IMG/VR virus record: IMGVR_UViG_3300025167_000005
Source of the DNA: an uncultured virus (IMG/VR IMGVR_UViG_3300025167_000005)
Taxonomy: Duplodnaviria; Heunggongvirae; Uroviricota; Caudoviricetes
Reading direction: 5' to 3' (one strand)
Length of the DNA: 64,000 bases
The translations under genes and the position numbers were made by a program. The notes below the pieces were generated by a model. That model had not been told where the DNA came from. It ran no database searches and worked only from the letters and a program-made list of their open reading frames with translations. Positions 1 to 44,165 of the stretch are shown piece after piece (position 1 is the stretch's first letter; each line of letters opens with the position of its first letter).

Positions 1-3000
1 AAGTATCCCGCCAGAGACGGTGAGCGCGTTGGCCACAACCCAGTTCGTGCCCATTGTCACTGTTCCGCCTTGGACGGTCATCGCGCTGAACGTGTTGTCC
101 GTGGACAAGAGGGCAATGCTGAACGTGCCATTAAACTGGAACACGCTCGTCGTTCCCTCGGCGAACGTCGAACCTGTTCCCGACGTATCCCAGGCACCGG
201 TAACGGTCCACGTACCAGTCGTTACCACGATGGTTCCAGACGCGCCTCCCGTCATCGTCACGGCGGAAACAGTTACTGCCGATGCGTTGGCGGTAAAAAT
301 GCTTGCGTTACCGGCCACCAAACCACCACCATCCATGGACAGGCCCGCCGTAGCAAGCTCCGTTGTCGATGTCGTATCGCTAACCGTTAGTGTAGTTGCC
401 CACCGGAGTCCGCGGGTTGCGAGAGTCCAGGCTTGAGGGGTCCCAGCAGAAGATTGGAACGTCGCGTTGTTAAAGTGGGCCTCGGATACGAAGTCACACG
501 GAGTAAAACTTGCATCGCCGGTTGCCGAATCAAACGCAATGGTTCCAGTACCCGCTTCCCACGCCGTTGTGTCGGTTGAACTGCAATCGAAGGCGCCGCT
601 CACTGTCCACGTCTCCGAGCCGAAGTCGATTGCCGAACCGGCCGCCGATATATTCAACGCGCCCGTGATGGTCGCACTACCAGAAGTGCTCGTAAGGTCT
701 CCACCGCTCATGGTCAACGCGCCAGCGGCCAGCGTCTGGGTGTTCTTTGCCACCGTTCCACCCGAAATAGTCATCGTATTGGTTACGACCAGATTACTGC
801 CAAGGGTGGCTATCCCCGTCGTCACCGTAAGCGCACTGAACGTGTTGTCCGAGCCCAGAAGAGTGATGGTCGCCGTAGCATCGAACGTGTAAAGAGAAGT
901 CGTTCCCTCGCTAAACGTGGAGCCTGCTCCCGATGTGTTCCAATTCCCAGAGATGGTCCACGAGCCCGTGGTGACCGTGAGAGTGCCCGACGTTCCGCCT
1001 GTCATGGTCACGGTGCTCAAGACCGCCGTAGAAGCGTTCGCAGTAAGAATGCCTCCGTTCCCAATACTCAAATCGGACACATCCACCGAATTGCCAAAGG
1101 CAAGGTCTGAAGTGGCCAACGCCGTGGTAGACGAACCATCTATAATAAAAAGCGTCGTAAGCCACCGGATTCCTCGCGTAGCCATCGTGAACGTCTGCGG
1201 CGTTCCAGCACTCGAATTGAACGTCACGTTGTTGAATTCGGCCTCGCTCAGGTTGATTCCGGCGAAAGTCATCGTCCCGCCCGTGATACCATCAAAGAGA
1301 ACGGTTCCAGTCCCAGCTTCCCACACGGCCCCGTCCGTAGAAGCATTCGTCCAGGTTCCGCTCACGGTCCAATTCTCGCTCCCGAAGTCGATGGCACTCA
1401 ACGCAGACGAGATGTTCACGTTGCCGGTGATGGTCACGTTTCCACTGGTGGATGTGAGGTCTCCCCCGCTCATGGCGAGACTTGCCACAGAGACCGTGAA
1501 AGTGGACTTGGCCAGAGTCCCTCCAGAGATGGTCAGCGCGTTGGTAACCACCATGTTCGTAGCCAACGTAGCCGTCCCTCCCGAAACGGTCAGCGCGGAG
1601 AACGTGTTGTCTGTAGACAGCAAGATAATACTCGCCGTGGTATCGAACGTGTAGAGAGAAGTTGACCCCTCAGTGAAAGTCGAACCTGCACCCGAAGTGT
1701 TCCACGACCCCGAGATGGTCCACGCCCCCGTGGTGCCCGTAACGGTCCCGCTTGTGCCCCCAGTCATGGTCACGCTTGTTACTGCGACGGTAGAAGCATT
1801 CGCGGTTAGAATGCCACCGTTCCCGACGACGAGTGCTGCCGTGGAAAGCCCTAACCCTGCCGTGGCCAATTCGGTAGTAGAAGAACCGTCCGAGACCGTA
1901 AGCGTCCCGCTCCACCGCAGAGCCCGCGTAGCCATCGTGAACGTCTGTGGTGTTCCTGCGGCCGACGTGAACGTCACATTATTGAACTCGGCTTCGCTTA
2001 GGTTAGCTCCAGCGAAAGTCATCGTCCCGGCAGAAGCCGCGTCGAAGGTGGTCGTTCCGGTTCCCGCGTCCCAGCTCGCCGTCGTACTGTTGTTCGTCCA
2101 AGTGCCACCAAAGTTCCAAAGGCCACTGCCGAAGTCGATGAAGGAAGTTGCATCAATAGACACCGCACCGTCAATATCCCCATCACAGGCCGCTACACCG
2201 CAGGAGATGTTCGCGCCTCCGGTCATCGTGAGCGTGCCAGTGGCAGTAAGTCCGTTCGTTGCACTGGCCCCTACCGTAATGGCCAGATTGCTCGTGTCGT
2301 AGATGATGGCACCAGACACAGCAAAGTTGAACGTTCCAATGACCAAAGTGCTGCTCGCATCGTTGAATCCAGTGGTGGTCAACGATGCCATCGCAGCACT
2401 CACATCGACAGTAATCGTGCATGCAGCGACGCAGGAAGCCGCATCAATGGTCACCGAGTTGGAGGCCGTTGGAACGTCGCATCCACTCGCTCCACCGCTC
2501 GAATCCGACCACTGTGCTGTACTGCTCCAGCTTCCGGTCCCGTTGACCCAGAACCGGGCCGCACCACAACCCACCGGAGTCTCGTCGATGGCCATCGCGT
2601 CTCCGGCAGCCCAGCCTGCAACCCTGGAAAGGGTGATTACCGTACCCACGGAGGTCTGAGTATCGACAACGCCTGCGTTCCGCTTGAGGTCGTAAGAAGT
2701 CGATGCCGTGACATCTTCCAGGACGAATTGCCAGGTGTCTCCGGCTACCGAAGGACTGAACGTCCAGCGCACGTCCACATTGGCTCCAGAAGTCCAGGCA
2801 GTCCAAGCAGTAATGTCTATCGTCCCAGACCCCGCGGTCCGTGCAATATACATGTTCGATACGACAATGATATCCATGGTCAGGCTACCGTCAATGTTAA
2901 GCACCGTCAGCCCAACGAAGTCCCCGGTTCCGATGAGAATGATACCGTTTGCCGCACACTCCACATCGTTCGCTTGGAGATTCAAGTTGGCCGTGTCCAG

Positions 3001-6000
3001 GGTAGTCGTAGACGTGGAATCGGTCACCGTGAGCGTACCACCGATACGCAGACTCCGGGTGGCCATCGTAAACGTCTGAGCAGTACCTGCCGATGAATTA
3101 AAGGACAGATGGTTGAATTCTGCCTCGCTCAGATTGACTCCGGCGAAAGTCATGGTCCCTCCCACTACTGACGTGAAAGTCACCGTTCCCGTACCGGCTT
3201 CCCACACAGCCCCGTCCGTGGAAGCATTCGTCCAAGTTCCAGCAACACTCCACGACTCGCTGCCAAAGTCGATGGCACTCAACGCAGACGAGATGTTGAC
3301 ATTCCCAGAGATGGTTACGTTCCCAGAAGTGCTGGTCAGGTCCCCGCCGCTCATTGTCAGGCTTGCCGCGGAGACCGTGAAGGTGGACTTGGCCAGAGTC
3401 CCACCAGAGAGCGTCAGCGCGTTCGTAACCACAACGTTCGTGGCCAGTGTGCGGGTTCCCCCGGAGACAGACAATGCGCTGAACGTATTGTCTGAGGCCA
3501 AGAGAGTGATAGTGGCAGACGCATCAAACGTGTAGACACTCGTCGAGCCCTCGGCAAACGTAGAACCAATCCCCGAAGTGTTCCACGAGCCCGAGATTGT
3601 CCAAACACCAGTGGTGACCGTTAGCGTCCCACTTGCCCCGCCCGCCATCGTCACGCTTGCCACGACAACTGTTGAAGCGTTCGCAGTCAGGATGCCCCCG
3701 TTTCCAACGACAAGCGCCCCTGTGGAAAGCCCCAGACTCACAGTGGCCAGTTCGGTTGTAGAAGAGCCGTCAGAGGCCGACAACGTTCCGGCCCACTGGA
3801 GAGCCCGAGTGGCCATCGTAAACGTCTGCGGCGTTCCGGCACTCGACGTAAACGTCACATTGTTGAATTCCGGCTCACTCAGGTTAGAACCGGCAAAGGT
3901 CACCGTGCCACCAACCACAGAAGAAAAAGTAACCGTACCGGTCCCCGCTTCCCACACCGCGGAATCCGTCGAATCGTTGGTCCAGGTTCCCGATACGCTC
4001 CACGTTTCACTACCGAAATCAATAGCACTCGCGGCCGAAGAGATGCTCACGGCCCCGGTGACGGTGACCGCTCCCGAGGTGCTGGTTAGGTCTCCACCAG
4101 ACATCGTGAGGGCTCCAGCGGCCAGCGTCCGGGTGTTCTTGGCAATCGTCCCCCCCGAAATAGTCGTCGTGTTTGTCACGACCAGGTCGCTTCCGAGGGT
4201 CGCAGTCCCCGCAGACACGGTCAACGCGCTGAACGTGTTATCCGAAGACAAGAGAGTAATACTCGCCGTAGCAGCAAACGTATAGAGGGAAGTCAAGCCC
4301 TCGGTGAACGTGGAGCCTGCTCCCGATGTGTCCCAATTCCCAGAGACAGTCCACGCGCCAGTGGTGAGAGTCAACGTCCCGCTTGCTCCGCCAGTCATCG
4401 TCATACTCGCCACTGCAACAGTAGAAGCGTTTGCGGTCAGGATGCCGCCGTTTCCGATGACAAGAGCCCCCATGGAAAGCCCCAACCCCGCGGTGGCCAG
4501 TTCCGTCGTGGAAGAACCATCAGAAACCGTCAACGTTCCAGCCCACTGAAGGTCTTGGGTCGCCATCGTAAACGTCTGTGGTGTCCCGGCACTCGATGCG
4601 AACGTCACGCTGCTGAACTCGGCTTCCGCCAGATTTAAGCCAGCAAAGGTCATCGTACCGCCAGTCCCGGAAGAAAAGGTAGCCGTACCGGTTCCAGAGT
4701 CCCATCCCGCAGAATCCGTCGAAGCATTCGTCCAAGTCCCGCTCACGCCCCACGACTCGGACCCAAAGTCGATGGCACTTGCCGCGGACGAAATGTTCAC
4801 ATTCCCGGTTATGGTGACTGCCCCTGAAATGCTGGTCAGGTCACCGCCAGACATCGTGAGCGCTCCAATGGCCAACGTCCGGGTGGTCTTCGCAGTCGTT
4901 CCCCCGGAGATTGTCATCGTGTTGGTCACGACCAGGTCGCTTCCGAGGGTTGCAATTCCGGAAGACACCGTGAGGGCGCTGAACGTGTTGTCTGTGGACA
5001 GCAAGGTGATGGTCGTCGTAGCATCGAACGTATAGAGAGAAGTTGACCCCTCGGTAAACGTCGAACCTGCTCCCGATGTGTCCCAATTCCCAGAGACGGT
5101 CCACAAGCCCGTCGTTACTGTGAGAGCACCCGACGTTCCGCCTGTCATGGTCATTGTACTCACCACGACCGCAGAAGCGTTCGCGGTGAGGATACCACCG
5201 TTTCCAACGCTTAAGGCAGGCGTATCAGCAGCGGCTCCCAGAGCAAGCCCGGCAGTAGCCAGCTCGGTCGTTGAAGAACCATCCGTGACCGAGAGCGTGG
5301 TGAGCCAGCGAACCCCCCTCGTAGCCATCGTGAATGTCTGAGCCGTGCCCGCGGCCGACGTGAAGGTCACGCCGTTGAACTCGGCCTCGGCCAGATTCAA
5401 GCCAGCGAAAGTCATCGTGCCGCCTGTGGTAGACGTGAACGTGACCGTCCCCGTACCAGCGTCCCAAGAAGCACTTGTCGTGGAGTTCGTCCAAGTTCCC
5501 GACACGGTCCAGGTCTCGCTTCCAAAGTCAATGTATGCCGTGGCCGTACTGATGGAGACCGTGGTGACTACAACGACGCCAGACGTGGAGGTCAGCCCGG
5601 AAGCCGCTGTCCCGGAAACCGTAAGAGCGCCACCCGTCAACCCCAGCGTAGCCTTGGCCAAGATGGTTCCGCCAGAAGTGTCCGTGACCGTCAGCGTCCC
5701 GCCCCAACGAACTCCACGGGTGGCCAACGTGAACGTCTGCGAGGTCCCCGCGTTGCTGGTGAACGTCACGTTGTTGAACTCGTCCTCGGCCAAGTTGGTG
5801 TCGGCAAAGGTCATCGTACCTCCGGCCGCAGCATCGAAGAGAACCGTCCCAGTCCCAGCGTCCCAAGTTGCATCCGTCGAAGCGTTCGTCCAGGTCCCGC
5901 TCACGGTCCACGATTCACTTCCGAAGTCGATGGCACTCAATGCAGACGAGATGTTCACGTTTCCAGTGACCGATACCGCTCCAGACGTGCTGGTCAGGTC

Positions 6001-7509
6001 CCCGCCGGACATCGTGAGCGCACCTTGGATTGTCAAAGACGCTGTGCCCTTGGCGATAACGCTCCCGCTAAGCGTAAGACTGTCCATGGTGATAGACGCC
6101 GCTCCAGAAGTGGTCAGAGACGCGGACACGGTGGCGGCGCCCACGTCCAGGGTCCCGGTAGAAATGGTAATAGTACCTCCATTATGCGTAAAAGACGCTG
6201 TGTTGGTAAAGCTAAACGAGGCCAGGACAAAGGTGCCGGTGAACCCGGCGGAAGTATAGGTTCCAGTAGTGACAGAGATACCTGCGTCAAGCGTGCCCGT
6301 ACCCGCCCCGCTGAGCGCGTCCATGAAGACCGAGTAGCCAGCGGTTGGCACCCCGGCGCCGCCCGCGCCGCCGGAGGACGATGCCCAACACCCCGCGTCG
6401 GTGCCGAGGGCCGTGACGGTGCATCCGGCATCGCCGAGGACGAGGTAGCGGGTCAGGAGGACCTCCGTGACGGCCACGCAGATTGCGGCGGCGTCGTCGG
6501 CCGTCTGGGTCCACCCGCAGGTGACATCGGTGCCGTTGATGGTGTTGTAGAGGTAGCTGGCGACCCCGTTCGTGCCGATGTCCAGCTCCCAGTTGTTGGT
6601 GGTCCATCCTGTAAGCGGCGTGTAGCCCCCAGGAGCGTTTTGCCCGGAATACAGTACGATGCTGGCGAACGAGGTCCTCCCGGCCAGGCTCAGCGTGACC
6701 GAAGGGCTGGCCTGTGAGGTCGAGTTGATGGTAGCGTCGGAGTCCACCAGCTCCGTGTCCGCAGATGCCGTGAGCGTTGTGACCGTGCAGCCCTTCGACG
6801 TGGCGTCGTTCACGGTGACTACGACGGAGGCAGGGTCATTCGTCGGAACACTTGACCCCAGGAAATAGACGGCGACATTGCCCCCCTCGCCCGCCGCCAA
6901 AACATTGGGAGACCCGGCAATCTCTGACATGGCAGTTCCTGCATAAGTTGCAGCGGTCCAACTATCGGTAGGCTCACCGCTTGCGCACATGACGATGGCA
7001 GCTCGGGGAGTGCCTACTGGATTATGGCTGATAGTGATAGTGCCGGTTCCCGAGCCGGTGGTGAAGGCGTCAAAGGCAACCTGGCCTCTGGCCGATGGAA
7101 GGAAGAAGTTCACCACACCGGAGAAAAAGTCTCCGACCGCCCGGACTATTTGGTCTCCCACGGTGACCATGTCCAACGGCCCAAACACGACAGGCTTTGA
7201 CCTCGCAGGAACGGTCTGCGGAAAGTCCTGCGGGTCCACGTACCTGTACTGCACCGTGGGATGCCCGTCACTCATAGGCAGCCACTGGCCAGTTTCCGGA
7301 GACTTGTCCTGTATCAGGGACTGGAGATATGTCCAGCTCTGGAAAGTCAACGACCCCCCCTTCAGAGTGACTCCGGACTCGGTGAACAGCACCTTGCCGA
7401 CCAGGGACGCTGGCATCCCGGTGACCGGGTTGACCATGGTAGCCACGGCCAGAACGCCGTAGGCGGACGCCACGATGACCAGGAGGACCGCTACGCTGGT
7501 GAGACGCAC
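1..7509 (-). CDS. Giant (>2500 aa, runs off window edge) T/S/G/A-rich repetitive secreted or surface protein, probably beta-solenoid adhesin/fibre
   Basis: GTG at 7509, about 25 nt below TATA aagctttatatac (7533-7545). N-terminus MRLTSVAVLLVIVASAYGVLAVA is signal/TM-like. The same frame reads through at 7170 and at position 30; the ORF track has no minus ORF in this frame, as expected if no stop occurs before the edge. Confidence 0.85.
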   Translation of the reverse strand, partial: MRLTSVAVLLVIVASAYGVLAVATMVNPVTGMPASLVGKVLFTESGVTLKGGSLTFQSWTYLQSLIQDKSPETGQWLPMSDGHPTVQYRYVDPQDFPQTVPARSKPVVFGPLDMVTVGDQIVRAVGDFFSGVVNFFLPSARGQVAFDAFTTGSGTGTITISHNPVGTPRAAIVMCASGEPTDSWTAATYAGTAMSEIAGSPNVLAAGEGGNVAVYFLGSSVPTNDPASVVVTVNDATSKGCTVTTLTASADTELVDSDATINSTSQASPSVTLSLAGRTSFASIVLYSGQNAPGGYTPLTGWTTNNWELDIGTNGVASYLYNTINGTDVTCGWTQTADDAAAICVAVTEVLLTRYLVLGDAGCTVTALGTDAGCWASSSGGAGGAGVPTAGYSVFMDALSGAGTGTLDAGISVTTGTYTSAGFTGTFVLASFSFTNTASFTHNGGTITISTGTLDVGAATVSASLTTSGAASITMDSLTLSGSVIAKGTASLTIQGALTMSGGDLTSTSGAVSVTGNVNISSALSAIDFGSESWTVSGTWTNASTDATWDAGTGTVLFDAAAGGTMTFADTNLAEDEFNNVTFTSNAGTSQTFTLATRGVRWGGTLTVTDTSGGTILAKATLGLTGGALTVSGTAASGLTSTSGVVVVTTVSISTATAYIDFGSETWTVSGTWTNSTTSASWDAGTGTVTFTSTTGGTMTFAGLNLAEAEFNGVTFTSAAGTAQTFTMATRGVRWLTTLSVTDGSSTTELATAGLALGAAADTPALSVGNGGILTANASAVVVSTMTMTGGTSGALTVTTGLWTVSGNWDTSGAGSTFTEGSTSLYTFDATTTITLLSTDNTFSALTVSSGIATLGSDLVVTNTMTISGGTTAKTTRTLAIGALTMSGGDLTSISGAVTITGNVNISSAASAIDFGSESWGVSGTWTNASTDSAGWDSGTGTATFSSGTGGTMTFAGLNLAEAEFSSVTFASSAGTPQTFTMATQDLQWAGTLTVSDGSSTTELATAGLGLSMGALVIGNGGILTANASTVAVASMTMTGGASGTLTLTTGAWTVSGNWDTSGAGSTFTEGLTSLYTFAATASITLLSSDNTFSALTVSAGTATLGSDLVVTNTTTISGGTIAKNTRTLAAGALTMSGGDLTSTSGAVTVTGAVSISSAASAIDFGSETWSVSGTWTNDSTDSAVWEAGTGTVTFSSVVGGTVTFAGSNLSEPEFNNVTFTSSAGTPQTFTMATRALQWAGTLSASDGSSTTELATVSLGLSTGALVVGNGGILTANASTVVVASVTMAGGASGTLTVTTGVWTISGSWNTSGIGSTFAEGSTSVYTFDASATITLLASDNTFSALSVSGGTRTLATNVVVTNALTLSGGTLAKSTFTVSAASLTMSGGDLTSTSGNVTISGNVNISSALSAIDFGSESWSVAGTWTNASTDGAVWEAGTGTVTFTSVVGGTMTFAGVNLSEAEFNHLSFNSSAGTAQTFTMATRSLRIGGTLTVTDSTSTTTLDTANLNLQANDVECAANGIILIGTGDFVGLTVLNIDGSLTMDIIVVSNMYIARTAGSGTIDITAWTAWTSGANVDVRWTFSPSVAGDTWQFVLEDVTASTSYDLKRNAGVVDTQTSVGTVITLSRVAGWAAGDAMAIDETPVGCGAARFWVNGTGSWSSTAQWSDSSGGASGCDVPTASNSVTIDAASCVAACTITVDVSAAMASLTTTGFNDASSTLVIGTFNFAVSGAIIYDTSNLAITVGASATNGLTATGTLTMTGGANISCGVAACDGDIDGAVSIDATSFIDFGSGLWNFGGTWTNNSTTASWDAGTGTTTFDAASAGTMTFAGANLSEAEFNNVTFTSAAGTPQTFTMATRALRWSGTLTVSDGSSTTELATAGLGLSTAALVVGNGGILTANASTVAVTSVTMTGGTSGTVTGTTGAWTISGSWNTSGAGSTFTEGSTSLYTFDTTASIILLSTDNTFSALTVSGGTATLATNMVVTNALTISGGTLAKSTFTVSVASLAMSGGDLTSTSGNVTITGNVNISSALSAIDFGSENWTVSGTWTNASTDGAVWEAGTGTVLFDGITGGTMTFAGINLSEAEFNNVTFNSSAGTPQTFTMATRGIRWLTTLFIIDGSSTTALATSDLAFGNSVDVSDLSIGNGGILTANASTAVLSTVTMTGGTSGTLTVTTGSWTISGNWNTSGAGSTFSEGTTSLYTFDATATITLLGSDNTFSALTVTTGIATLGSNLVVTNTMTISGGTVAKNTQTLAAGALTMSGGDLTSTSGSATITGALNISAAGSAIDFGSETWTVSGAFDCSSTDTTAWEAGTGTIAFDSATGDASFTPCDFVSEAHFNNATFQSSAGTPQAWTLATRGLRWATTLTVSDTTSTTELATAGLSMDGGGLVAGNASIFTANASAVTVSAVTMTGGASGTIVVTTGTWTVTGAWDTSGTGSTFAEGTTSVFQFNGTFSIALLSTDNTFSAMTVQGGTVTMGTNWVVANALTVSGGIL
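120..5960 (-). repeat. ~750-bp (~250 aa) degenerate coding repeats in the giant gene
   Basis: The motif tcgaacgtRtagagagaagt and variants recur at ~881, 1643, 3524, 4274 and 5024 (spacings 762, 750, 750). A different module interrupts at ~2100-3000. Recurring protein motifs include TMTFAGLNLxExEFNNVTF and IDFGSESWTVSGTWTN. Confidence 0.85.
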
Positions 7510-7532
7510 TAAGAAGCTCTGGAGTCTGAGGG

Positions 7533-7566
7533 TATATAAAGCTTGCTGGCGCGACAGGTTTATATG
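7533..7566. promoter_or_regulatory. Divergent archaeal TATA promoters (giant gene on -, ncRNA1 on +)
   Basis: Minus strand aagctttatatac and plus strand aggtttatatg match archaeal BRE-TATA spacing. Confidence 0.7.
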
Positions 7567-7587
7567 GGTCTGCCACCATCTACTAAA

Positions 7588-7691
7588 TGCAGAGGGAATC
7601 TGCATCCTGAGCGTCCGGAGCGCACTCTACCGGCAGCGCCACTCCGCTGGAATATTACACGGGCCGACTTGGGTGGAAGGTCGGCCCTTTT
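7588..7691 (+). ncRNA. Putative structured ncRNA 1 (kissing-loop motif)
   Basis: Has its own TATA. Hairpins tgcaga/tctgca, ccgg/ccgg, cagcg-CCACTC-cgctg and gggccgactt-GGGTGG-aaggtcggccc, followed by TTTT. A 23-bp core is identical to ncRNA2. Confidence 0.6.
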
Positions 7692-7767
7692 GAGACTCGA
7701 TTCTCTTCAATCTCACACTACCTGTTTAAACCACAGGTTCTTATAGGACCGCCGCTATCTATAGATG

Positions 7768-7945
7768 CTTAGCGACCGGAGCGCAACCTCCGGCAGCGCC
7801 ACTCCGCTGGAAAGTGTTACGCTGGCCGCCTCTGAGTGGAGAGGACGGTCCTATGCCTCCGGCGGCATGTAATTCGACCGGCCGTGCTGCCCCACGGGTT
7901 GAATGGGGGGCCATCTCTGGGCAGGGAGATGGTCCATCCCGCGAC
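7768..7945 (+). ncRNA. Putative structured ncRNA 2 (paralogue of ncRNA 1)
   Basis: Promoter ttcttataggaccg at 7738. Hairpins ccggag/ctccgg, cagcg-CCACTC-cgctg and cctct-GAGTGG-agagg, plus further stems (atgcc/ggcat, ccgtg/cacgg, ccatctc/gagatgg). Confidence 0.6.
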
Positions 7946-7983
7946 AAAAGTTCTTATAGGACCGTCGCCATCTATAGGTGTCT

Positions 7984-8210
7984 GGGCTGGCAGCACCATG
8001 CCTAAGTGCGGGGTTCGATTCCCCGGCAACGTTGAGGTGCTTCGGCGTTGCAAGGCCCTAAACTGGAAAATCCGGGCCGTCTTTGGGTAGAGAGAACGGC
8101 CCAATATACATCTCATGCGCTCTTGACAACATCGACCAGTGGCCTATGGTCTGCCTAAACTGGAAAGTGGCAGTTCCTGGTCCGTTTTGGCAAGCAGGTA
8201 ACCGATGGTC
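7984..8210 (+). ncRNA. Putative structured ncRNA 3 with tRNA-like T-arm
   Basis: Second copy of the promoter ttcttataggaccg at 7951. T-arm cgggg-TTCGATT-ccccg; hairpins gcaacg/cgttgc and gggccgt/acggccc; cctaaactggaaa occurs twice. Confidence 0.5.
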
Positions 8211-8214
8211 GGCC

Positions 8215-8439
8215 TCAGGCCACGGCCTCGTTGTAGACCTTCCAGGCGGAAGCCACGGTCTCGTTGTAGGCCTTCTGGGCGAGAGCCTTAGCCTCGACGC
8301 AGGCCCTCTGGGCGGGAGCCGTGACTTCGTCGTAGGTCTTCTGGGCGAACACCCAGGCGTTGGTGAAGGTCTTCCAGGCGGTATCCACAGCCTCGTTGAG
8401 GGTTTCCTGAGCAATCTGTTTCTTGGTCGCGTCAGTCAT
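8215..8439 (-). CDS. Small protein made of 11-aa (A-x-K-A-Y-x-E-A-V-A-S) repeats
   Basis: Leaderless behind TATA aaggtttataag at ~8462; repeats AWKTFTNAWVF/AQKTYDEVTAP/AQKAYNETVAS. Confidence 0.75.
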   Translation of the reverse strand: MTDATKKQIAQETLNEAVDTAWKTFTNAWVFAQKTYDEVTAPAQRACVEAKALAQKAYNETVASAWKVYNEAVA

Positions 8440-8623
8440 ACCCCTACTATGGCCTTCGTCCCTTATAAACCTTTAGCAAGACCAAACAGGTCAGTTACTG
8501 ACGAGTCTTCCGAAAACCAGCCCAAGCACGAAGTCCGCGTAGGTCGGGAGATGGTCCGTTTACGCCAGGGGGCAGGTCCTTCAATGCGCCAAGTATATAA
8601 AGGTCGAACGCCATAGTAAGAGC

Positions 8624-8770
8624 ATGGCATACAACAAGGCGACACGGGCGGCAGGTGTGGCGATTGAGACCGGAGAAGTCCGCATGCTTCTGGAGAACCA
8701 TTTCCCCGGAGTGGTTGCGGAAGTCCTCATGGACTGGCTCGCCAGGGGCCAATCGGAACACAACTACTGA
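8624..8770 (+). CDS. Hypothetical 48-aa protein
   Basis: ATG about 25 nt after tatataaa (~8595); MAYNKATRAAGVAIETGEVRMLLENHF... Confidence 0.4.
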   Translation: MAYNKATRAAGVAIETGEVRMLLENHFPGVVAEVLMDWLARGQSEHNY

Positions 8771-11157
8771 CCCAGATGCGACCGCCGGTCCAGTTCGGCC
8801 ATGACCTCGTCAATGCCAAGCCGGTCACACTCCTTCTTGACCTTGTGGACGTACTGTCGGGTCACCCCGACTTCCCTGGCAATCAGGCTGAGCGACCACC
8901 CCGAGTGGCCTTGGAGCAGCTCAACGATTTGCCGCTTCTTGTGCGACTCCGGGTCGTTTGTAGCACCCTCTTCCCCGCCCTCATCGTCCTCGGCAAGGTC
9001 TTCCGGGTTCACGTCTATGGTCGGTATGGCCCCACGGGCCAGCAGGGCCTGCTGGACCATAGGTGTCGGGTCCTCATGCATGAACTTGTAGAGTAGGGTC
9101 GGATACTGATTGCTCGGATAGATGCCCAGGACTGCCACCAGCTCGTTGAAATTGAACTTCTTGTGAGTAACCGGGTGGATGCCCGAGTCAAACGACGCCG
9201 CGCCCTTGGTGTCAAAGTACATGCTACCGACCTTGCAATCCTCCCTGGAGGTCGCCATTCGCTCTGTCCTCGGCACGAGGACCGGGACAAAATTTAGCCC
9301 GCGCTCGGGCCACTCGACCAGGACCAGGGTACGAATCTCATATCTGGCGCGAAGCAGGTCTGCGGCATACTTCTGCATAAGATGCGGCTCCTTGGCCAGT
9401 CGGATGTCGAGCAGGCCTTCCTCGGACCGCAGCTTCTTAATCATCAGCTCAGGCCGGATGGAAATGAACTCCATGGATGCACCGAACTTCCTGATGAGCG
9501 TGCCCACCTTGACCATTGAACGAGAGAGGAAATCCTGGAACGACGCAGACTCCAGGCTAACGGCGCCTTCGTCAATAATCCACAGCACCTTGGCCTCTGG
9601 GTTCTCGTGAAAAATCTCAGACAGAACGAGAAAGAACTGAGCCAGCGTGGTGACTTTGATGTAGCGAGGAGGATAGCCTTCCTTGTCTCCCCACCGACTT
9701 CCCTCTCCTTTGACGTTGATAAGTACATTGCTCAACACCCACCCATCATGATGAAGGAACCAGTCTGCGAGAACCATGGCAAGATGCGTGTTGTGAGACA
9801 CAATGTCGTTTGCCAGGAAGTTGTGGACTTCTGGAACTGTGATGTCATATACCGGTCCAGAGTATTCCACCGAGCTTGCCGACGTGACCAAATCCCATAA
9901 GATTGGAGCTTTCAGAACCTCCCTGGCAAGCTCGGGGTTGTCAATCCTTAGACACCCCTCATCGAGAATACGCTGAAGCTTTTGCCGGGTCATCCCATAC
10001 TTCGGCCTGAAGGTAGGAGCCGTATGCCGAATACCCCTCCTATATAGAGACTTGTTCTGCTGCTGTATACCAATAGCATCAATAAAGCTCATAGGGATAA
10101 CATTCAAGGTCGAGTTTGCCGTGTGAGCGGTCGTGTCCAGCCTCCGGCTTCTCGCCCCCACAATTCCAATTTCCCTGGAAAACTTTCCGGCTGAATCTCC
10201 ATCGGTTATGTTGACCTGATACGAAATACACGAGGCTCGTGTCTTGGAGTTGGTACACGTCTTCGTGCCCGAAGTAAGCTGACTCAGAATCCCAAATCTC
10301 AAAAGGAGATGCCGAACCTCTTCGACCAGTCGTCTTGACGTGGAAGAGTAAGAAATACGCCCAAGCTTGTTTACATAACCATCTGTAGAAAACAGACACC
10401 TCAAGAACACGGACACATTGCTTCTCGTGGAGGTAAACACGGCCGTTGGAATGAACTTGGTTCTGCTTCTACTTCCATACAGTCCGTGGGTCTCCAAAAA
10501 AGTCATCAGCGGGGACCTGGCCATCGTACCATGCCGTCTATTTCTCTTAACCACGCGATGTGTATACGGCCCATGAGCCACCATGTCCATGGCGACCCCA
10601 CTCTTCTCTCCGAGGGCCTTCAGCGCCCCAGCAAAATCTTCAACAACTTCCCTATCAGCGTTCGTGAATGAGACCTGGGGGCCGCAGTGTCCATCCCCAA
10701 TCATGTAAGCCAGCAGTTTCAACTCCTCGTCTTCCATTTTCTTCGTACCCCAGACATCCAACTCTCTTGGAGTAGCGATAAAGTCCGAACCAGGTAGCAA
10801 CTTAGCAGCAGGAACCCAGCCGAGCGGAGTCAACAGAGGATGCTCCGGTGTAACAAGGATACTCCTCCCAGTTCTCGTCTCGACCCTAACCATTCCGTCC
10901 GAGGGTAACTCATAATGTGCCACGGCAGGCAGCGATACAAATCCATCGCGCCTCAGCCCGACCACGGCGGCCTCTCTGGCCGCCACCACTTGCGACGCAG
11001 CAGGCCAACGACCATCTGGAAGCAAGATGCGGGTATCTGGCCCGACGCACTTACCCCCGCCGCGGTTCCCCGTCACAAGGATAATTCTCCCCTCCCCCAG
11101 CATCTGGGTCAGCGCCTCCTTCATCCGGCGTTTCCTCGACACGTCGGCCTCGTCCAT
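8764..11157 (-). CDS. Zot/FtsK-HerA-like P-loop ATPase with intein and C-terminal HTH
   Basis: Spliced Walker A GNRGGGK|T, Walker B VLWIIDEG, IRKFG arginine motif, C-terminal SLSLIAREVGVTRQYV HTH. Confidence 0.8.
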   Translation of the reverse strand: MDEADVSRKRRMKEALTQMLGEGRIILVTGNRGGGKCVGPDTRILLPDGRWPAASQVVAAREAAVVGLRRDGFVSLPAVAHYELPSDGMVRVETRTGRSILVTPEHPLLTPLGWVPAAKLLPGSDFIATPRELDVWGTKKMEDEELKLLAYMIGDGHCGPQVSFTNADREVVEDFAGALKALGEKSGVAMDMVAHGPYTHRVVKRNRRHGTMARSPLMTFLETHGLYGSRSRTKFIPTAVFTSTRSNVSVFLRCLFSTDGYVNKLGRISYSSTSRRLVEEVRHLLLRFGILSQLTSGTKTCTNSKTRASCISYQVNITDGDSAGKFSREIGIVGARSRRLDTTAHTANSTLNVIPMSFIDAIGIQQQNKSLYRRGIRHTAPTFRPKYGMTRQKLQRILDEGCLRIDNPELAREVLKAPILWDLVTSASSVEYSGPVYDITVPEVHNFLANDIVSHNTHLAMVLADWFLHHDGWVLSNVLINVKGEGSRWGDKEGYPPRYIKVTTLAQFFLVLSEIFHENPEAKVLWIIDEGAVSLESASFQDFLSRSMVKVGTLIRKFGASMEFISIRPELMIKKLRSEEGLLDIRLAKEPHLMQKYAADLLRARYEIRTLVLVEWPERGLNFVPVLVPRTERMATSREDCKVGSMYFDTKGAASFDSGIHPVTHKKFNFNELVAVLGIYPSNQYPTLLYKFMHEDPTPMVQQALLARGAIPTIDVNPEDLAEDDEGGEEGATNDPESHKKRQIVELLQGHSGWSLSLIAREVGVTRQYVHKVKKECDRLGIDEVMAELDRRSHLGQ
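9790..11049 (-). mobile_element. Intein (420 aa) with LAGLIDADG endonuclease in Walker A
   Basis: Starts CVGPDTRIL, block B VTPEHPL, LAGLIDADG motifs LLAYMIGDG and FLRCLFSTDG, ends VYDITV...IVSHN followed by Thr. Confidence 0.95.
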
Positions 11158-23387: not shown

Positions 23388-24137
23388 TCACGGTCTCACC
23401 GAAGACCGCAAGGCAACAGCACCCAACCCCTCATTGGCCAGCTTCCACCGAGCCAGGGCCTCTCTCGGCCCGGCAACATCCTCACAATATTCGGCGTCCA
23501 CTATTCCCATTACATGGAGGCGATAGTCCAGATACCTATCCTCCACCAGCTCCCTTTTACAAAACCCCGGACCCGCGACGAGGGCCTTGGTGATGCCCAT
23601 GCTCTGGAACAACAACTCGTTGGCCACTCCGGCAACCTTGCGCTGCCACTGTTTGACCTGCTCTCTATGGCCACGCTGGAATCGCGCCTGAGATTGTCCT
23701 CCCATCCGGTGTTTCCCCATCACGCCTGAGAACTCGTGCCACAACGAGACGAAAACCTCCCCTCGCCACCAGGCTATGGCAGCTTCGTTGTTGTCGATGA
23801 GGATAAGTCCGTACTTCTCGCCTTGTGCCAGGTCCCGAAGCGCGTCCAGAGGCTCCCGATAGAAATCCGTGCCACACTTGTACTGGTTCGACATGTTACG
23901 GGTAGGTGGCTCGATGGCCTCGACACCCTCGCTCGATGCGAAGAGGACCAGCCCGTTCGGAGGAATCTCCTTCAGCCCAGCCAGATACGTCAGGATGTTG
24001 CGCCACGCAGCCTGGACCTCGGTTCGGGTCCAGTTGCTCTGCACGTTCCTGGAAGCTATCTGCTCGCGCTTAGCCAGGTTCTTGACGTTCTGGAGCGTAC
24101 TATCCGCGGCGACATAAAGCGATATGCGATTGGTCAC
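23388..24137 (-). CDS. prf1: Truncated archaeal/eukaryotic-type peptide release factor 1 (N and M domains)
   Basis: ISLYV, RNVQS at the NIKS position, PPNGLVLF, YKCGTDF (YxCxxxF), GKHRMGGQSQARFQR, VAGPGFCK; no C-domain. Confidence 0.88.
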   Translation of the reverse strand: MTNRISLYVAADSTLQNVKNLAKREQIASRNVQSNWTRTEVQAAWRNILTYLAGLKEIPPNGLVLFASSEGVEAIEPPTRNMSNQYKCGTDFYREPLDALRDLAQGEKYGLILIDNNEAAIAWWRGEVFVSLWHEFSGVMGKHRMGGQSQARFQRGHREQVKQWQRKVAGVANELLFQSMGITKALVAGPGFCKRELVEDRYLDYRLHVMGIVDAEYCEDVAGPREALARWKLANEGLGAVALRSSVRP

Positions 24138-28460: not shown

Positions 28461-28810
28461 ACAGAAACCTCCACAGCCGACCCGCCGCGGTTCTCGTATC
28501 TCTTTACGACGACGCCGCGTTCGTCTACCACCGACGCAGAATAGAGCTTTACCCCGGTTCCAACCCACTCCTTTGCGATGCCAATTGCATCGTTGAAAGT
28601 TCTGGGCCCGCCCGTACTCTCTCCAGGACCATGATGTACCGTGTAACGCATTAGGCTGCGTACTTTTACTTCAAGGTCGCGTACCTTTACTTCGGCATTC
28701 AGCCTCTTCAGACGTTCATCGTTCAACTGCCGACATCTATTGCATCGCCCGGCAGACCCAGCAAAATTGCCACAGTCCGAGCAGTGTCGAGGCTTAGTTC
28801 GTTCGGCCAT
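28457..28810 (-). CDS. Zinc-finger hypothetical protein
   Basis: CSDC...CNRC. Confidence 0.65.
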   Translation of the reverse strand: MAERTKPRHCSDCGNFAGSAGRCNRCRQLNDERLKRLNAEVKVRDLEVKVRSLMRYTVHHGPGESTGGPRTFNDAIGIAKEWVGTGVKLYSASVVDERGVVVKRYENRGGSAVEVSV

Positions 28811-29678
28811 CTTCGGTATCTTCCTGGGGCCGGTCGGCTATAAAGGTTCGGAGACTCGGCAGCCTCTTCCTCAGCGAAACGTCCGTGGTATCACAGACCC
28901 TGGCAACCTCTTCCTGGGCCAGATGAAATCCACACCGCTTGGCGGCCATGTACAGGGCCGCCGCCGCACGAACACGGGCCGGGTGCCCGGTCTGCTCGGA
29001 CATCAAGGCCAAGAGACGCCTGGCCTCCCGGAGGATGTCTCCGCGAACTCTGAGACGTTCCACGGCAAGCGCGAGGACGGTGTCCGGGGCCACCGATGCA
29101 TCGACAACTCCATTCGCCCTCCTGACGATGGCATAAACTCGTCTCACTTGCTTCATCGGCTGCTTCCGGACGATGTTCACTGAGGCCAGCAGGTCCTTTT
29201 GAGCAAGATAGACATTCTTTTCCCTCGCGGCAAGGAGGATGGATGCCGCAACGAGCACGGTGAACTCCTGTCCCCGGAGAAGTCCGGCGTCATACGTTTT
29301 CTTGGCAAACTCCAGAGCCCGGTCACGGACCATGGACGCCACCTGAAGCCGGGAGCAGGCGGCGTAAACCAGCGCACGAAGATGCCGCGTAGCACGCTCT
29401 TTCTGCTTCAGGCCGCGTGAGTCAATCAGTGAAAGGTAGCGCATTCGGTGCTGAGTCTGCCCGTCGAGAAGCTTTCCGGTTCCGTCCACAGCGCCCCCAA
29501 AGTGCGTGGTCATCGAGAAGGTGTTGTTGTCGTGGATAGGAGGTCCACGCCCGTCCGAGGTGACCAGCTCATCCTTGGAAAGCAACAACTCATCCGCAAC
29601 AAGGAAGCACCAGTTACAGAACTTCTCACCACGAACCGGGTCGCTGATTAGGGGGCCACCGCATGTGCAGATTTCCAT
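28794..29678 (-). CDS. tfb: Transcription factor B (TFIIB family)
   Basis: N-terminal Zn ribbon CTCGG...DPVRGEKFCNWC, B-reader GRGPP, two cyclin repeats (LLRGQ..AASILLAAR; AAALYMAA..QEEVARVCDTTDVSLRKR). Confidence 0.92.
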   Translation of the reverse strand: MEICTCGGPLISDPVRGEKFCNWCFLVADELLLSKDELVTSDGRGPPIHDNNTFSMTTHFGGAVDGTGKLLDGQTQHRMRYLSLIDSRGLKQKERATRHLRALVYAACSRLQVASMVRDRALEFAKKTYDAGLLRGQEFTVLVAASILLAAREKNVYLAQKDLLASVNIVRKQPMKQVRRVYAIVRRANGVVDASVAPDTVLALAVERLRVRGDILREARRLLALMSEQTGHPARVRAAAALYMAAKRCGFHLAQEEVARVCDTTDVSLRKRLPSLRTFIADRPQEDTEDGRTN

Positions 29679-41282: not shown

Positions 41283-44165
41283 CTAAGACTGCTGACGAAG
41301 GCGAAGACCTTTGTATATCGAATGCCCGGCGAGGGTCCTGAATGAAAATCTCTGTCGTAGTACACGGGAGAACCTGTTCTGGGTCATCGGGATGCGGATG
41401 TTGTTGACTCCGCACCACAACAGGTAGGCATCGTAGAGGTTCCGGATAGGAGTCTCGTATGTGGGGTCTTGCTCTGCAAAGTCTTCAAGGAACTCGTGGA
41501 GGGGGTATTCTTCGTAACGGTATTGCTCGGTCGTCATGACCACTCTGGCCGGAGCAACCATCCCGTCCCGCTGCCACTTCAGGCATCCCTCAACGGCCCA
41601 GTTCAGGATTCCTGGTAGCTCGGGAAGCAGGGCTTTTTCGGCGTAGTCCTTGACCTCTTCCTCGGCGCTGAACCGGTAGGTCCACTCCACCAGATGTACC
41701 CGGTCCCAGATGGCGTTGTCCGCGTCCCGGATGCGAGGCCGGTTGTTCGTGGCCAGCCAGATTTTGAACTGGGGATAGTAGGTGAAGTCCTCGTGGAAGA
41801 GGAACCGGCATCGAATCTGGTCTCCACCGGCGATGCTCTTCACCATGTTCACGTCCAACTCGAAGTCGTTCCCGGACTCGACAGCGACGACCAGGCGTTT
41901 CCCGACGAGAGAGGCCAGGTCGTTCCGGATTTTTCCGTCCATCTTGACTCCGAACGTGTCGAAGCGGACTGTTGTGGCGTACTCACCGAAGAGTGAGAGC
42001 AGCGTGCGATATAGAGTGCTGTTGTGGGTCGGAATCATTGCCCGTGAGCAAAGATAGGTACTGGAGGGAGAGTTGACTTGGATACAGCGAACTGGCACGC
42101 TCGGGACCAGTTCGCAGGCTATGATTTTTCTGTTCAGTGGCCTTGTCCTGGGGCGACAGATAGAAATCTTTCGTTGAAGACGGAACACGGTAAGTTCCTC
42201 TGTAGTGGTGAAAAGAACCCTATACTTGGGTCCGATTACCCTTCCATAGATGGTTGCCGTTCCTACGTTCAGCGTTGGCCTGAGACCAAGACTTCTGATA
42301 AGTTCAAGAACGCCGCTGGCGATTTGCTCGTTTGTCGATGTGAACTCGCATTGTGCCTGGCGTCTGAGGGTGGAGCCGTCTGTGTCCATCAATCCCTGAA
42401 GCAAGGCCAGCCGTTGTGCAGGCGAAGCACGCAGGTATTTTTCCGGGATGTGCTTGTTGTTGAGAACTCCGAGCGCGCGTAGTCTCTGTCTGAATGAGTC
42501 GGTCCACCTGCTTGCGTGTTCTGGTGTTAGTGAGATTGTAACGCTCCACGCAGAACCGGCTCTCCGTGCCTTGGTATAATAACCGGCGCTTTCTATCTGT
42601 TTTATGAAGTGTTCTACATCTTTCGTTCCGCAGGTCATGCGAGACCCGGAAGAGTCTCCGTCACCAATCCAAGCTCCGAGGACATAAGGGTCGATTGGGA
42701 GTGGAACGTTGGGCAACTCAAGAGGTTTCGCCATCTGTACAGAAAATTGATAGCAACGTGTTGCCGGGTTCCTTCTTTGTTTGAACACGTTTCCTGCTAT
42801 CTCCTCTGTCGTCACCCGTTCGGGCTCACCGAGGACCTTTTTGGCAACCCACTCGTGCTCTCCGTCGGCAATCACGGTTTCTCCATCTGAAAATGTGACT
42901 CTGTAACACGGTCTATCTTGCCACACCTCAGACAGCCCAACAACTTCGCATATACGACCTTTTGCATCGAACACCTTGCTTCCTATCTCCAGTTTTCCTT
43001 GCACAGTCCAGCCGGTGGGCGTAGGTATGGGGGTATCCAGGGCCAGAGCTTTTCCGTTTCTTGCAAGTTGCCCCCAGTCGATACGTAGCTTTCGTTCTCC
43101 GGTCAGCCCGGTAAGCGAGTATCCGACGAACCTCTGAAGGTGCTCGCGGAGATTCTCGTCAGGAAGTACCTTTTCCAGGAAGGCGAGGAAGTTGGGGCAA
43201 TGAGCTTCTGGGTCGTAGACTAATGGAGACAAGAGCATGTTGAGGTCCTCTTTACGGCTTGGAACTAACTTCCCAGTGCGCAGGTCGATAACTCCGTTTG
43301 ACACGTTGAACAACCAGGGGTCCTTGTTCAGGTTGTCAGGTTCAACGCAGTGTGTCCTGGCCAGCTCGACCATGGCGTCCAGGCGGGTCTTGGATTCACT
43401 CCGGATAGCGAACTTGTGGATGTTCTTTCGTTCGTCCTTATCTTCTATCCCCTCGGCCTCGCGTGGGATGAGTCGCACCGTAGACCTGGCCATGAAGGCA
43501 ATATGGGCTCCGTCGTCGAGCCTCCATCTCTGGCCATCCCAGACCATCCACTTGCCCCACTTGTACACATACCAGGCGTATTCACCAAATCGGGTGATAA
43601 GCCGTTCCATGTTTCCGAGGTCTGTAAATGGATGAGACTCGATGTCTTTCTGCATTGATTCGGTAAGCTCCCGGACGTAGGACATGGACTCCGGACTTGC
43701 CGGTGGAGCAACTGGTGCCTTCCTACCAGGTTCTTCTGGTATGGAAACAGTTTCGGCCATCCCCAAGTCTTTCAACTCCTCCAAGATTCTCACCGGCTCC
43801 TCGTCCTCTTGCGCGATGAGGGCGATAGCCTTGGTGATAGTCGGGACATAGTAGGTTGCCGTCCGGGTTCGCTTCGGGTCATCGGCTGGGCGGATGACCA
43901 CCTTCTGGAGCAGGGTGTAGATTTCATCCCGGGTCCATCCCTGCCGTGCCGCGTGCATGGCGAGAGCGAATTCGGCAGCGCTCTGGTCCTCGTTGAAGTG
44001 GGCCCGGGAGTCCTCATCCCATCTGGCGATGGAGGACATGACTCCGGTGAGCGGGAACCTTCCAGAGATGTCTACGACCTTGAGTTCTGCGGTCGAAGCC
44101 TCAGGCCTGGTGACACCAGGGAGAGAATCAGTGAACGCAGCGATAGCGGCGAGGTTGGCGTTCAT
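41283..44165 (-). CDS. D5/P4-type SF3 helicase with N-terminal primase-accessory-like domain and intein
   Basis: DQSAAEFALA, TDLGNMERL, WMVWDGQRW, NVSNGVIDLRTG, Walker A ARNGK|ST, LVGKRLVVAVES, IWLATNNRP. Confidence 0.9.
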   Translation of the reverse strand: MNANLAAIAAFTDSLPGVTRPEASTAELKVVDISGRFPLTGVMSSIARWDEDSRAHFNEDQSAAEFALAMHAARQGWTRDEIYTLLQKVVIRPADDPKRTRTATYYVPTITKAIALIAQEDEEPVRILEELKDLGMAETVSIPEEPGRKAPVAPPASPESMSYVRELTESMQKDIESHPFTDLGNMERLITRFGEYAWYVYKWGKWMVWDGQRWRLDDGAHIAFMARSTVRLIPREAEGIEDKDERKNIHKFAIRSESKTRLDAMVELARTHCVEPDNLNKDPWLFNVSNGVIDLRTGKLVPSRKEDLNMLLSPLVYDPEAHCPNFLAFLEKVLPDENLREHLQRFVGYSLTGLTGERKLRIDWGQLARNGKALALDTPIPTPTGWTVQGKLEIGSKVFDAKGRICEVVGLSEVWQDRPCYRVTFSDGETVIADGEHEWVAKKVLGEPERVTTEEIAGNVFKQRRNPATRCYQFSVQMAKPLELPNVPLPIDPYVLGAWIGDGDSSGSRMTCGTKDVEHFIKQIESAGYYTKARRAGSAWSVTISLTPEHASRWTDSFRQRLRALGVLNNKHIPEKYLRASPAQRLALLQGLMDTDGSTLRRQAQCEFTSTNEQIASGVLELIRSLGLRPTLNVGTATIYGRVIGPKYRVLFTTTEELTVFRLQRKISICRPRTRPLNRKIIACELVPSVPVRCIQVNSPSSTYLCSRAMIPTHNSTLYRTLLSLFGEYATTVRFDTFGVKMDGKIRNDLASLVGKRLVVAVESGNDFELDVNMVKSIAGGDQIRCRFLFHEDFTYYPQFKIWLATNNRPRIRDADNAIWDRVHLVEWTYRFSAEEEVKDYAEKALLPELPGILNWAVEGCLKWQRDGMVAPARVVMTTEQYRYEEYPLHEFLEDFAEQDPTYETPIRNLYDAYLLWCGVNNIRIPMTQNRFSRVLRQRFSFRTLAGHSIYKGLRLRQQS
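42021..43049 (-). mobile_element. Class-3-like intein (343 aa, Ala1) with LAGLIDADG endonuclease
   Basis: Starts ALALDTPIPTPTGW; DGEHEW, VRCIQV and IPTHN|S give the W-C-T triplet; LGAWIGDG and LLQGLMDTDG. Confidence 0.92.

Follow-up and report, generated by a model that had tools for sequence, protein, structure and literature searches.

The uncultured virus record IMGVR_UViG_3300025167_000005 of IMG/VR, of which a stretch of 64,000 nucleotides (nt; the window hereafter) was analysed, appears to carry an island of three tandem small non-coding RNA (ncRNA) genes at 7550-8110. The predicted RNAs, U1, U2 and U3, would be read from the + strand, each from a TATA-type promoter of its own, and their common building block is a pair of adjacent hairpins with mutually complementary loops. 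Judged from its sequence and from the searches below, this is a new orphan family of structured RNAs in a novel archaeal-type mobile element. The presence of such an RNA structure under selection is very likely. The reading favoured as a whole, in which three stable structured ncRNA genes have loops that pair in cis and function through their shape, is given a probability of roughly 0.45.

The 23-mer CCGGCAGCGCCACTCCGCTGGAA has only two exact copies in the window (7630-7652 and 7790-7812), and each contains a 5-base-pair (bp) hairpin, CAGCG/CGCTG, with the loop CCACTC (7634-7649 and 7794-7809). Both this repeat and its hairpin had been pointed out in an earlier note on this DNA, and the two copies are indeed exact. 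On the 3' side of each is a 10-bp hairpin, at 7661-7687 in unit 1 (loop GGGTGGA) and at 7824-7850 in unit 2 (loop GAGTGG). The loop complements that the note had named, GGGUGG for the first RNA and GAGUGG for the second, are present in both cases; complementarity to CCACUC extends over 6 nt, with one G-U in unit 1 and Watson-Crick pairs throughout in unit 2. The short and long hairpins are called H2 and H3 here, and the two-hairpin modules of the first and second unit M1 and M2. The likeness between U1 and U2 reaches further 5' (7604-7624 versus 7765-7785, 86%) and takes in a preceding hairpin, H1 (7615-7633 and 7776-7793).

The description of a duplicated RNA is right for both of these units, and more is present in addition. 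A third module, M3 (7882-7935), lies inside the coordinates of that note and has the same architecture in different letters, and a third promoter and unit follow at 7945-8106. In M3, the hairpin H2b (CCGUG/CACGG, loop CUGCCC) is separated by a 10-nt linker from H3b, which has the stem GGGCCAUCUC/GAGAUGGUCC and a loop that includes GGGCAG. The design common to all three modules is thus a 5-bp H2 with a 6-nt loop, a linker of 10-14 nt (11, 14 and 10 nt in M1, M2 and M3), an H3 of 10-11 bp, and 6 complementary loop bases. Complementarity between the loops is limited to exactly these 6 bases in every module, and the complementary 6-mers are 30, 33 and 32 bp apart.

Such arrangements are clustered in this region. 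When a script searched all 64 kb for neighbouring hairpins with 6 or more complementary bases in their loops, it returned seven distinct pairs on the + strand, three of which fall inside 7634-7935, a span of about 300 nt. The - strand gave three pairs, two of them mirror images of + strand modules. In the null, 20 runs on Markov-resampled 64-kb sequences, the mean was 1.5 per strand and the maximum 4. R1, a covariance model derived from these three modules, reaches 78.6 bits at 7626-7692, 81.4 bits at 7786-7855 and 74.1 bits at 7874-7940.

With M3 included, compensatory changes are seen in both stems and in the loop-loop helix. By explicit pair lists, standard pairs fill all 15 cells of H2, all 18 of the loop-loop helix and all 42 of H3 (four hairpins). 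Both partners have changed at two of the five H2 positions (A-U to C-G; C-G to U-A), at three of the six loop-loop positions (C-G to U-A; A-U to G-C; U-A/U-G to C-G) and at two of the 11 H3 positions; one H3 position occurs as A-U, C-G and U-A. When the loop partner is slid by 1-3 nt, pairing falls from 18/18 to 5-9/18 cells. On a model-fitted alignment (A7), 93.8% of cells are paired and 7 of the 22 pairs have changed on both sides, with the caveat that such pair counting inflates the apparent support when the structure has been read from these very sequences. The value of 7/22 is reached by none of 500 shuffles of A7, and no slid control exceeds 2. In A7, all four unpaired cells belong to the outer H3 helix of M2 and are an alignment effect, because a bulged A shifts the register of M2 against the other two rows.

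The pairs also indicate the strand. Read on the - strand, the pair lists contain 0 (H2), 1 (loop-loop) and 5 (H3) non-pairs, and on the + strand there are none; since a G-U pair becomes A-C on the opposite strand, the RNA should be the + strand. The selection on structure proposed from the two original units is therefore borne out by covariation, on the + strand only, and is not explained by coding (see below). Folds constrained to contain H2 and H3 lie 0-1.3 kcal/mol above the free minimum free energy (MFE), and in a simple duplex model the loop duplexes would be worth -7.1, -8.0 and -10.1 kcal/mol.

BRE (B recognition element)/TATA promoters, transcription starts some 25-30 nt downstream and leaderless messages are features of archaeal transcription. 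The window holds 39 TATA-like octamers (TTTATATA, TTTAAATA and similar), and for 19 of these the start codon of an open reading frame (ORF) of at least 40 amino acids (aa) follows at +27 to +34; for random positions the average was 6.0 and the highest count 13 of 39. The transcription signals of the element, as far as its DNA reveals them, are archaeal in type, a point that the earlier note does not make, and bear the signature of leaderless messages. The boxes of the three units, at 7559, 7740 and 7953, show the same TATA-to-start spacing as the element's own genes. A shared promoter pattern has two matches, in repeats 2 and 3 (Table 1), where 0 are expected, and a downstream element, CCAT[C/A][T/G]..A, is present in all three units and recurs at the promoters of two small genes, at 8439-8215 (-) and 8624-8770 (+). 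The earlier claim of separate promotion is thus upheld to the extent that three upstream repeats fit the TATA-plus-~30-nt design of the element; from this we infer separate transcription of U1, U2 and U3, with predicted starts near 7588, 7770 and 7982. There is no TATA box belonging to M3 itself, which is placed with M2 in U2. A run of T residues follows U1 only (7688-7691), with none between U2 and the next promoter, and U2 may read into U3. A promoter reading of the CTATAG element on the - strand was rejected; its TATA is weaker and its spacing is not gene-like.

Table 1. Predicted RNA units, promoter-like repeats and flanking genes (positions in the window)
Feature	Positions	Strand	Details
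Giant gene	1-7509	-	>2,500 aa, extends past the window edge; predicted GTG start at 7509, 31 nt after TATA; N-terminal hydrophobic segment; divergent from U1
Promoter-like repeat 1	7553-7588	+	TTTATATG at 7559-7566; 64% to reference copy; predicted U1 start near 7587-7590
Predicted RNA U1, ~105 nt	7588-7692	+	5' hairpin 7588-7604; H1 7615-7633; H2 7634-7649 (loop CCACUC 7639-7644); linker 7650-7660; ends predicted
U1, 3' part	7661-7691	+	H3 7661-7687 (loop GGGUGGA 7671-7677), then UUUU 7688-7691
Promoter-like repeat 2 (reference copy)	7732-7767	+	CTTATAGG at 7740-7747; predicted U2 start near 7765-7772
Predicted RNA U2, module M2	7768-7945	+	H1 7776-7793; H2 7794-7809 (CCACUC); linker 7810-7823; H3 7824-7850 (GAGUGG, bulged A 7845)
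Predicted RNA U2, remainder	7768-7945	+	Hairpin 7852-7869; M3: H2b 7882-7897, linker 7898-7907, H3b 7908-7935
Promoter-like repeat 3	7945-7980	+	CTTATAGG at 7953-7960; 86% to repeat 2; predicted U3 start near 7978-7984
Predicted RNA U3	7978-8106	+	Hairpin 7989-8002; T-arm-like 8009-8025; 11-bp hairpin 8026-8051 replacing H2; H3-type hairpin 8074-8102 (loop GGGUAG)
74-aa gene	8215-8439	-	Five 33-nt (11-residue) repeats; promoter subtype as in the RNA units (TATA ... CCATAGTA ... ATG)
Partial inverted copy of M3 5' half	8546-8575	-	CUGCCCC ... GGACCAUCUCCC; ~26-55 nt downstream of TATA 8601-8594 (-)
P-loop ATPase gene	8764-11157	-	P-loop NTPase; LAGLIDADG intein directly after the Walker A lysine; C-terminal helix-turn-helix (HTH)

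U3 resembles the other units in part. Its 3' portion (8020-8106) is matched by R1 at 25.1 bits (E 7e-5), the next-best match in the window being 12.3 bits (E 0.2), and by its sequence U3 is a partial fourth member of the module family. The complementarity of its loop GGGUAG to CCACUC is incomplete, which fits the loss of the H2 partner in this unit. The T-arm of U3, CGGGG-UUCGAUU-CCCCG, is perfect (5-bp stem, UUCRAnn loop), and the 15-mer GGGGTTCGATTCCCC matches it exactly and at a single place (8010-8024). The fold has several arms and beats shuffled sequence (z = -3.04; 1 of 200 shuffles as good). The best Rfam matches on U3 are nevertheless below gathering (mascRNA 18.8 bits versus 42.5, E 0.97; tRNA-Sec 15.7 bits, E 7.5), and the unit lacks a 7-nt anticodon loop, matching acceptor strands and CCA. 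ARAGORN found 0 transfer RNA (tRNA) genes in the window, and lowered thresholds yielded only implausible calls or noise. Readings of U1-U3 as tRNAs or split tRNAs were rejected, given that no cloverleaf could be built by hand and ARAGORN returned noise only.

Some smaller repeats adjoin these units. CCTAAACTGGAAA occurs twice (8057-8069 and 8154-8166), each time as a potential hairpin loop on a different stem (GGCCC/GGGCC versus CUGCC/GGCAG), and may be an additional small conserved hairpin; CUGGAA is also found 3' of H2 in U1 and U2. The partial inverted copy of the 5' half of M3 contains a 12-mer complementary to the 3' strand of H3b and is possibly, to go by its position behind a TATA box, a fifth small transcript of about 55 nt. 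The TATA at 8594-8601 is palindromic and may fire both ways, towards the 48-aa gene (8624-8770, +) and towards a minus-strand small RNA.

Searches for relatives of the RNA were negative throughout. No Rfam family reaches its gathering score over the whole window, and over 7400-8800, searched at E up to 10, nothing reaches its threshold; the earlier impression that this is no known riboswitch or ribozyme agrees with this Rfam check. The 23-mer has 0 matches in viral contigs, where a 16-mer core has 15 loci, none with similar flanks (0/15). Exact matches of a 19-mer core in one genome each of 185,579 prokaryote species were found at 28 loci, of which 0 share flanks or lie in an array. Nor did the RNA region match phages or plasmids by blastn. 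For the C-terminal part of the neighbouring ATPase, five relatives with 57-61% identity were found, and seven metagenome loci were retrieved. These seven loci have no nucleotide similarity to 7401-8800 at E up to 1 and carry other genes downstream; the best covariance-model score for a module there is 10.2 bits (E 0.28), and the hairpin-pair scan finds two background pairs in 24,281 bases. Searches of viral contigs with the ATPase, the 74-aa protein and alignment A1 gave nothing, and tblastn of the ATPase and of the element's TFIIB/TFB homologue against phages likewise gave none. The N-terminus of the giant protein matched a single IMG/VR locus (L008, 46% over a domain), which lacks synteny and is densely packed with coding sequence. 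Readings as a C/D-box RNA, an H/ACA RNA or a terminator were discarded, as there is no C box, no pocket, and a T-run after M1 only. In the portions of the literature that were searched, no pertinent description of kissing-loop or tRNA-like ncRNAs of archaeal viruses or plasmids was found.

In the favoured reading, the two loops of one module would pair in cis, and the 6-bp loop-loop helix would stack between the stems to give a rigid, compact and nuclease-resistant fold. The loop pairs of the two U2 modules, CCACUC/GAGUGG and CUGCCC/GGGCAG, are orthogonal, so that mis-pairing within the U2 transcript would be impossible, and U3 would have a long hairpin in place of H2 with a tRNA T-arm added. 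The RNAs would act as shapes and not as antisense or message; they could be scaffolds or decoys for an RNA-binding protein, possibly as mimics of tRNA shape. Only three things prompt this suggestion: U3 has a T-arm, targets are absent, and genes related to RNA repair and translation are found elsewhere in the element. Two points speak for pairing in cis. The linkers of 11, 14 and 10 nt are, by a geometric estimate, close to the minimum that would span a coaxial stack of 21-22 bp, and loop pairs are orthogonal only in the case of two modules on one predicted transcript.

Several observations weigh against this reading, beyond the inflation of pair counts mentioned above. The covariation comes solely from three to four paralogues at one locus, and M1 and M2 hardly differ in the stem and loop of H2, so that the independent comparison is essentially that of M1/M2 with M3. 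U1 and U2 are no more stable than shuffled sequence (z-scores of -1.66 and -1.01 for unit 1, and of +0.67 and -1.20 for unit 2), and H2 is missing from the plain MFE fold of U2. Transcription, ends and abundance are predicted from promoter resemblance, no homologue of the RNA was found in any collection searched, and a function as scaffold, decoy or tRNA-shape mimic is conjectural. For pairing in cis, the linkers of M1 and M3 would have to be extended almost to their full length. The M3 linker has the alternative of base-pairing, by which both stems are lengthened, and this would favour pairing in trans. Covariation itself is blind to the difference between cis and trans, and the covariation-predicted kissing loops of ROOL and GOLLD proved intermolecular (PMC12286853).

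It may also be that these RNAs assemble hand in hand, with the H2 loop of one molecule bound to the H3 loop of another, into dimers or into bigger complexes of RNA only or of RNA with protein. Co-assembly could occur between U1 and the first U2 module, which have the same loop specificity, and the second U2 module could provide an orthogonal valency. The strain that 10-11-nt linkers place on pairing in cis is in keeping with this, as is the retention of identical H2 loops by M1 and M2 in two separate transcripts, although that identity may merely reflect recent duplication or gene conversion. The alternative pairing of the M3 linker would make H2b and H3b two long helices from one junction, and this would suit a symmetric dimer better. 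Complementary loops within one molecule are the design of the packaging RNA (pRNA) (PMC4201828), and the phage-borne ROOL and GOLLD use their covariation-supported kissing loops between molecules (PMC12286853). However, the three-way junction of the pRNA type is absent from the U1-U2 folds, Rfam yields no match to pRNA, ROOL or GOLLD, and there is no recognisable portal, terminase or packaging ATPase beside the RNAs. The speculation that this is a packaging RNA like that of phi29 finds no footing here: pRNA is not matched at any threshold, no three-way junction is present, and the adjacent ATPase looks like an AAA+/HTH protein. Assembly in trans is on balance doubtful, and its more specific form, in which two orthogonal kissing-loop specificities let U1 and U2 self- and co-assemble into multimers of RNA only or of RNA and protein, is slightly more so.

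Other readings do not require the loops to meet each other, or do not require RNA at all. It is improbable that the units are trans-acting regulatory small RNAs, with the loops or the 23-mer as seeds for messenger RNAs of the element or its host and with internal complementarity to mask or tune the seed. The 23-mer is 100% conserved between otherwise diverged units, an 8-bp contiguous complement to CCACUCCG lies in the neighbouring 48-aa gene, at 8700-8714, and the 3' strand of H3b has a perfect 12-nt complement at 8546-8557, in a possible - strand transcript. These matches are, however, near chance (the 12-mer has a blast E of 2.1, and the 8-bp pair is one of 18 similar inverted pairs in 1.4 kb), and external targets would give no reason for the joint change of the H2 and H3 loops in M3, where three of six positions are compensatory. 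Still less credible is the idea that the ATG or GTG codons at the start sites open leaderless micro-ORFs. The start codons of the element are normally at the transcription start (19 of the 39 TATA boxes fit), and the ATG of U2 (7765) opens 35 codons and the GTG of U3 (7978) 27, which would give proteins of 35 and 27 aa. The ATG of U1, though, opens only 7 codons, and its frame ends ahead of the conserved blocks. Indels of 1, 2 and 1 nt in the U1/U2 alignment break a common frame, so the conserved blocks are not in one reading frame, and the substitutions in the modules are pairwise compensatory in helices and not codon-wise. The larger ORFs over the region (99 aa at 7817-8116, -; and 8083-8616, +) have no Pfam match and no promoter at gene-like spacing. 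A dual role, as peptide plus structured RNA, is nonetheless conceivable. A DNA-level element or chance, in the form of protein-binding sites (origin, partition, operators), a remnant of an attachment site in a tRNA gene, or leftovers of neutral duplication, appears equally far-fetched. The region is intergenic and rich in repeats, it adjoins an AAA+/HTH protein with a weak DnaA-like match, ATAGGACCGYC occurs three times, once inverted, and T-arms such as that of U3 are frequent in attachment sites. Yet the G-T pairs of the hairpins become A-C mismatches on the other strand (the 0, 1 and 5 non-pairs given above), pointing to RNA, and the 6-mer spacing varies, unlike that of a dimer site. Covariation between loops has no rationale at the level of DNA, and the three modules within 300 nt stand against a null of 1.5 per 64 kb. 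No integrase is found among the 69 ORF products scanned against Pfam, and the turn in GC skew is near 42-44 kb, away from the RNA island.

The element that carries the predicted RNAs has a G+C content of about 57%, and the stretch is also present in eight soil or sediment DNA runs, with no RNA run among those listed. Contigs of four sequencing runs over 7300-8700 are identical in letters wherever they cover the RNA region, and 7770-7910 is without cover. It encodes the TFB homologue at 28794-29678 (-), whose structural neighbours are mostly archaeal, with Nitrososphaerota common among them; this is a weak hint to the host. LAGLIDADG inteins are found in three genes, the P-loop ATPase (8764-11157), a D5 primase-helicase and a Lon-like protease, the latter two at 41283-44165 and 59758-63393. 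Other recognised products are an RNA ligase, an eRF1-domain protein, NAMPT and a carbamoyltransferase; the majority of the remaining products have no family assignment (69 products were scanned against Pfam and 20 against PHROGs). No close relatives of the element occur among the phage and archaeal-virus records, IMG/VR contigs and plasmids searched. The element is novel and archaeal-type in its transcription, and it is probably a virus or plasmid of soil archaea. The RNA ligase (PF09414; 17411-18349, -) and the eRF1-domain-2/VLRF1-like protein (23388-24137, -) are encoded in the same element as the tRNA-like unit, and a tie of these genes to RNA repair or translation conflict is conceivable. 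The product of 58377-59276 (+) has Cas4-domain exonuclease-like PHROG matches (phrog_1706, 1.2e-11; phrog_1990, 9e-06).

The genes on either side of the island have features of their own. The TATA of the giant gene (7540-7533, -) stands back to back with the promoter of U1, with about 20 bp between the two TATA boxes, and the gene (1-7509, -) has a sub-threshold pentapeptide-repeat match. Over the 74-aa repeat gene, the soil-run contigs are many and diverged, with a depth of up to 129 versus 0-6 in the bins of the RNA cluster (7300-8192), and such a repeat-gene family therefore seems to be abundant in those soils. ACAACATCGACCAGTGGCCTATGG, at 8126-8149, has one copy in the window, and a near variant continues the contigs of two runs past position 8480, which suggests that related elements, too, have the motif beside their copies of the repeat-protein gene; it could be an intergenic signal or a 3' untranslated region. 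The ATPase gene ends 819 nt from 7945, in accordance with the distance of about 800 bp noted before. Intein-free relatives of its product have sub-threshold generic AAA matches and an HTH, the appearance being that of an AAA+ P-loop protein with a C-terminal HTH. Their best PHROG matches are to a family of unknown function (2.3e-10) and, weakly, to a DnaA-like one (4e-5), and the best solved structure is McrB (E 0.11). As its sequence stands, the neighbouring ATPase is not a recognisable terminase or packaging ATPase, and no portal or terminase was recognised among the products scanned against Pfam (69) and PHROGs (20), most of which are ORFans.

To our knowledge, very few structured ncRNAs from archaeal viruses and plasmids are known. 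The module found at this locus is compact, repeated and easy to mutate, and it comes with compensatory changes of its own, among them two natural orthogonal loop pairs. It is set in an unusual host element, with archaeal promoters, a TFB, intein-bearing D5, Lon and ATPase genes, an RNA ligase, an eRF1-like protein and a gene of >2,500 aa. With pairing in cis, the module would represent a new and minimal way of folding a stable RNA of a virus. With pairing in trans, self-assembling RNA would occur naturally in the third domain of life, and the locus would hold the first quaternary RNA of the pRNA or ROOL type from an archaeal mobile element; its building block would be a minimal two-hairpin unit of about 55 nt, and it could supply a ready orthogonal connector set for RNA nanostructures.

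Some known systems share single features with these modules. Viral CRISPR-repeat mimics (RNA anti-CRISPRs or solitary repeat units) are close in sequence to the CRISPR repeat of the host; a reading of this kind was set aside, as the exact 19-mer matches lend it no support (0 of 28 loci in an array). The purine riboswitch, through L2-L3, and the guanidine-II (mini-ykkC) riboswitch also have adjacent hairpins whose loop-loop contact defines the fold. The former has a closing P1 and the latter ACGR loops, and both are found in bacterial 5' leaders and combine few Watson-Crick loop pairs with a ligand. The modules described here differ in having six plain Watson-Crick or G-U pairs, loops (CCACUC, GRGUGG, CUGCCC and GGGCAG) that are not ACGR, no + strand gene downstream and no Rfam match. 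For U3 only, there is a likeness to mascRNA and tRNA in the perfect T-arm, the several-armed fold and the weak mascRNA match; unlike those RNAs, U3 scores below gathering and does not form a cloverleaf with paired acceptor ends.

The loop helix of phi29 pRNA is 4 bp, whereas that of the present modules is 6 bp. Each pRNA has two mutually complementary loops that pair between molecules into a ring, on a three-way-junction scaffold (PMC4201828). Like phi29 pRNA (RF00044), M1, M2 and M3 belong to small RNAs of a virus-type element and have two mutually complementary loops. In contrast to pRNA, they give no RF00044 match, either at the gathering score over the window or at E up to 10 over 7400-8800, and the hairpins H2 and H3 follow one another across a single-stranded linker, with no conserved closing helix or three-way junction (a weak one is seen in U2 only). 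Archaeal-type promoters, three paralogous units versus one gene, and the lack of a recognisable portal or packaging ATPase nearby are further differences. ROOL and GOLLD are mobile-element RNAs, often located beside tRNA genes, and are held together by kissing loops that were predicted from covariation and proved to be intermolecular (PMC12286853). The present cluster is similar in that it includes a tRNA-like unit and its putative kissing loops are seen as covariation. ROOL and GOLLD, however, are ornate bacterial RNAs with lengths of 500-800 nt or more; the predicted RNAs of this locus measure about 105-180 nt, consist of a simple repeated two-hairpin module, have archaeal-type promoters and match no Rfam family. 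The motifs of a 2026 preprint on short self-assembling RNAs also differ from those of the present modules.

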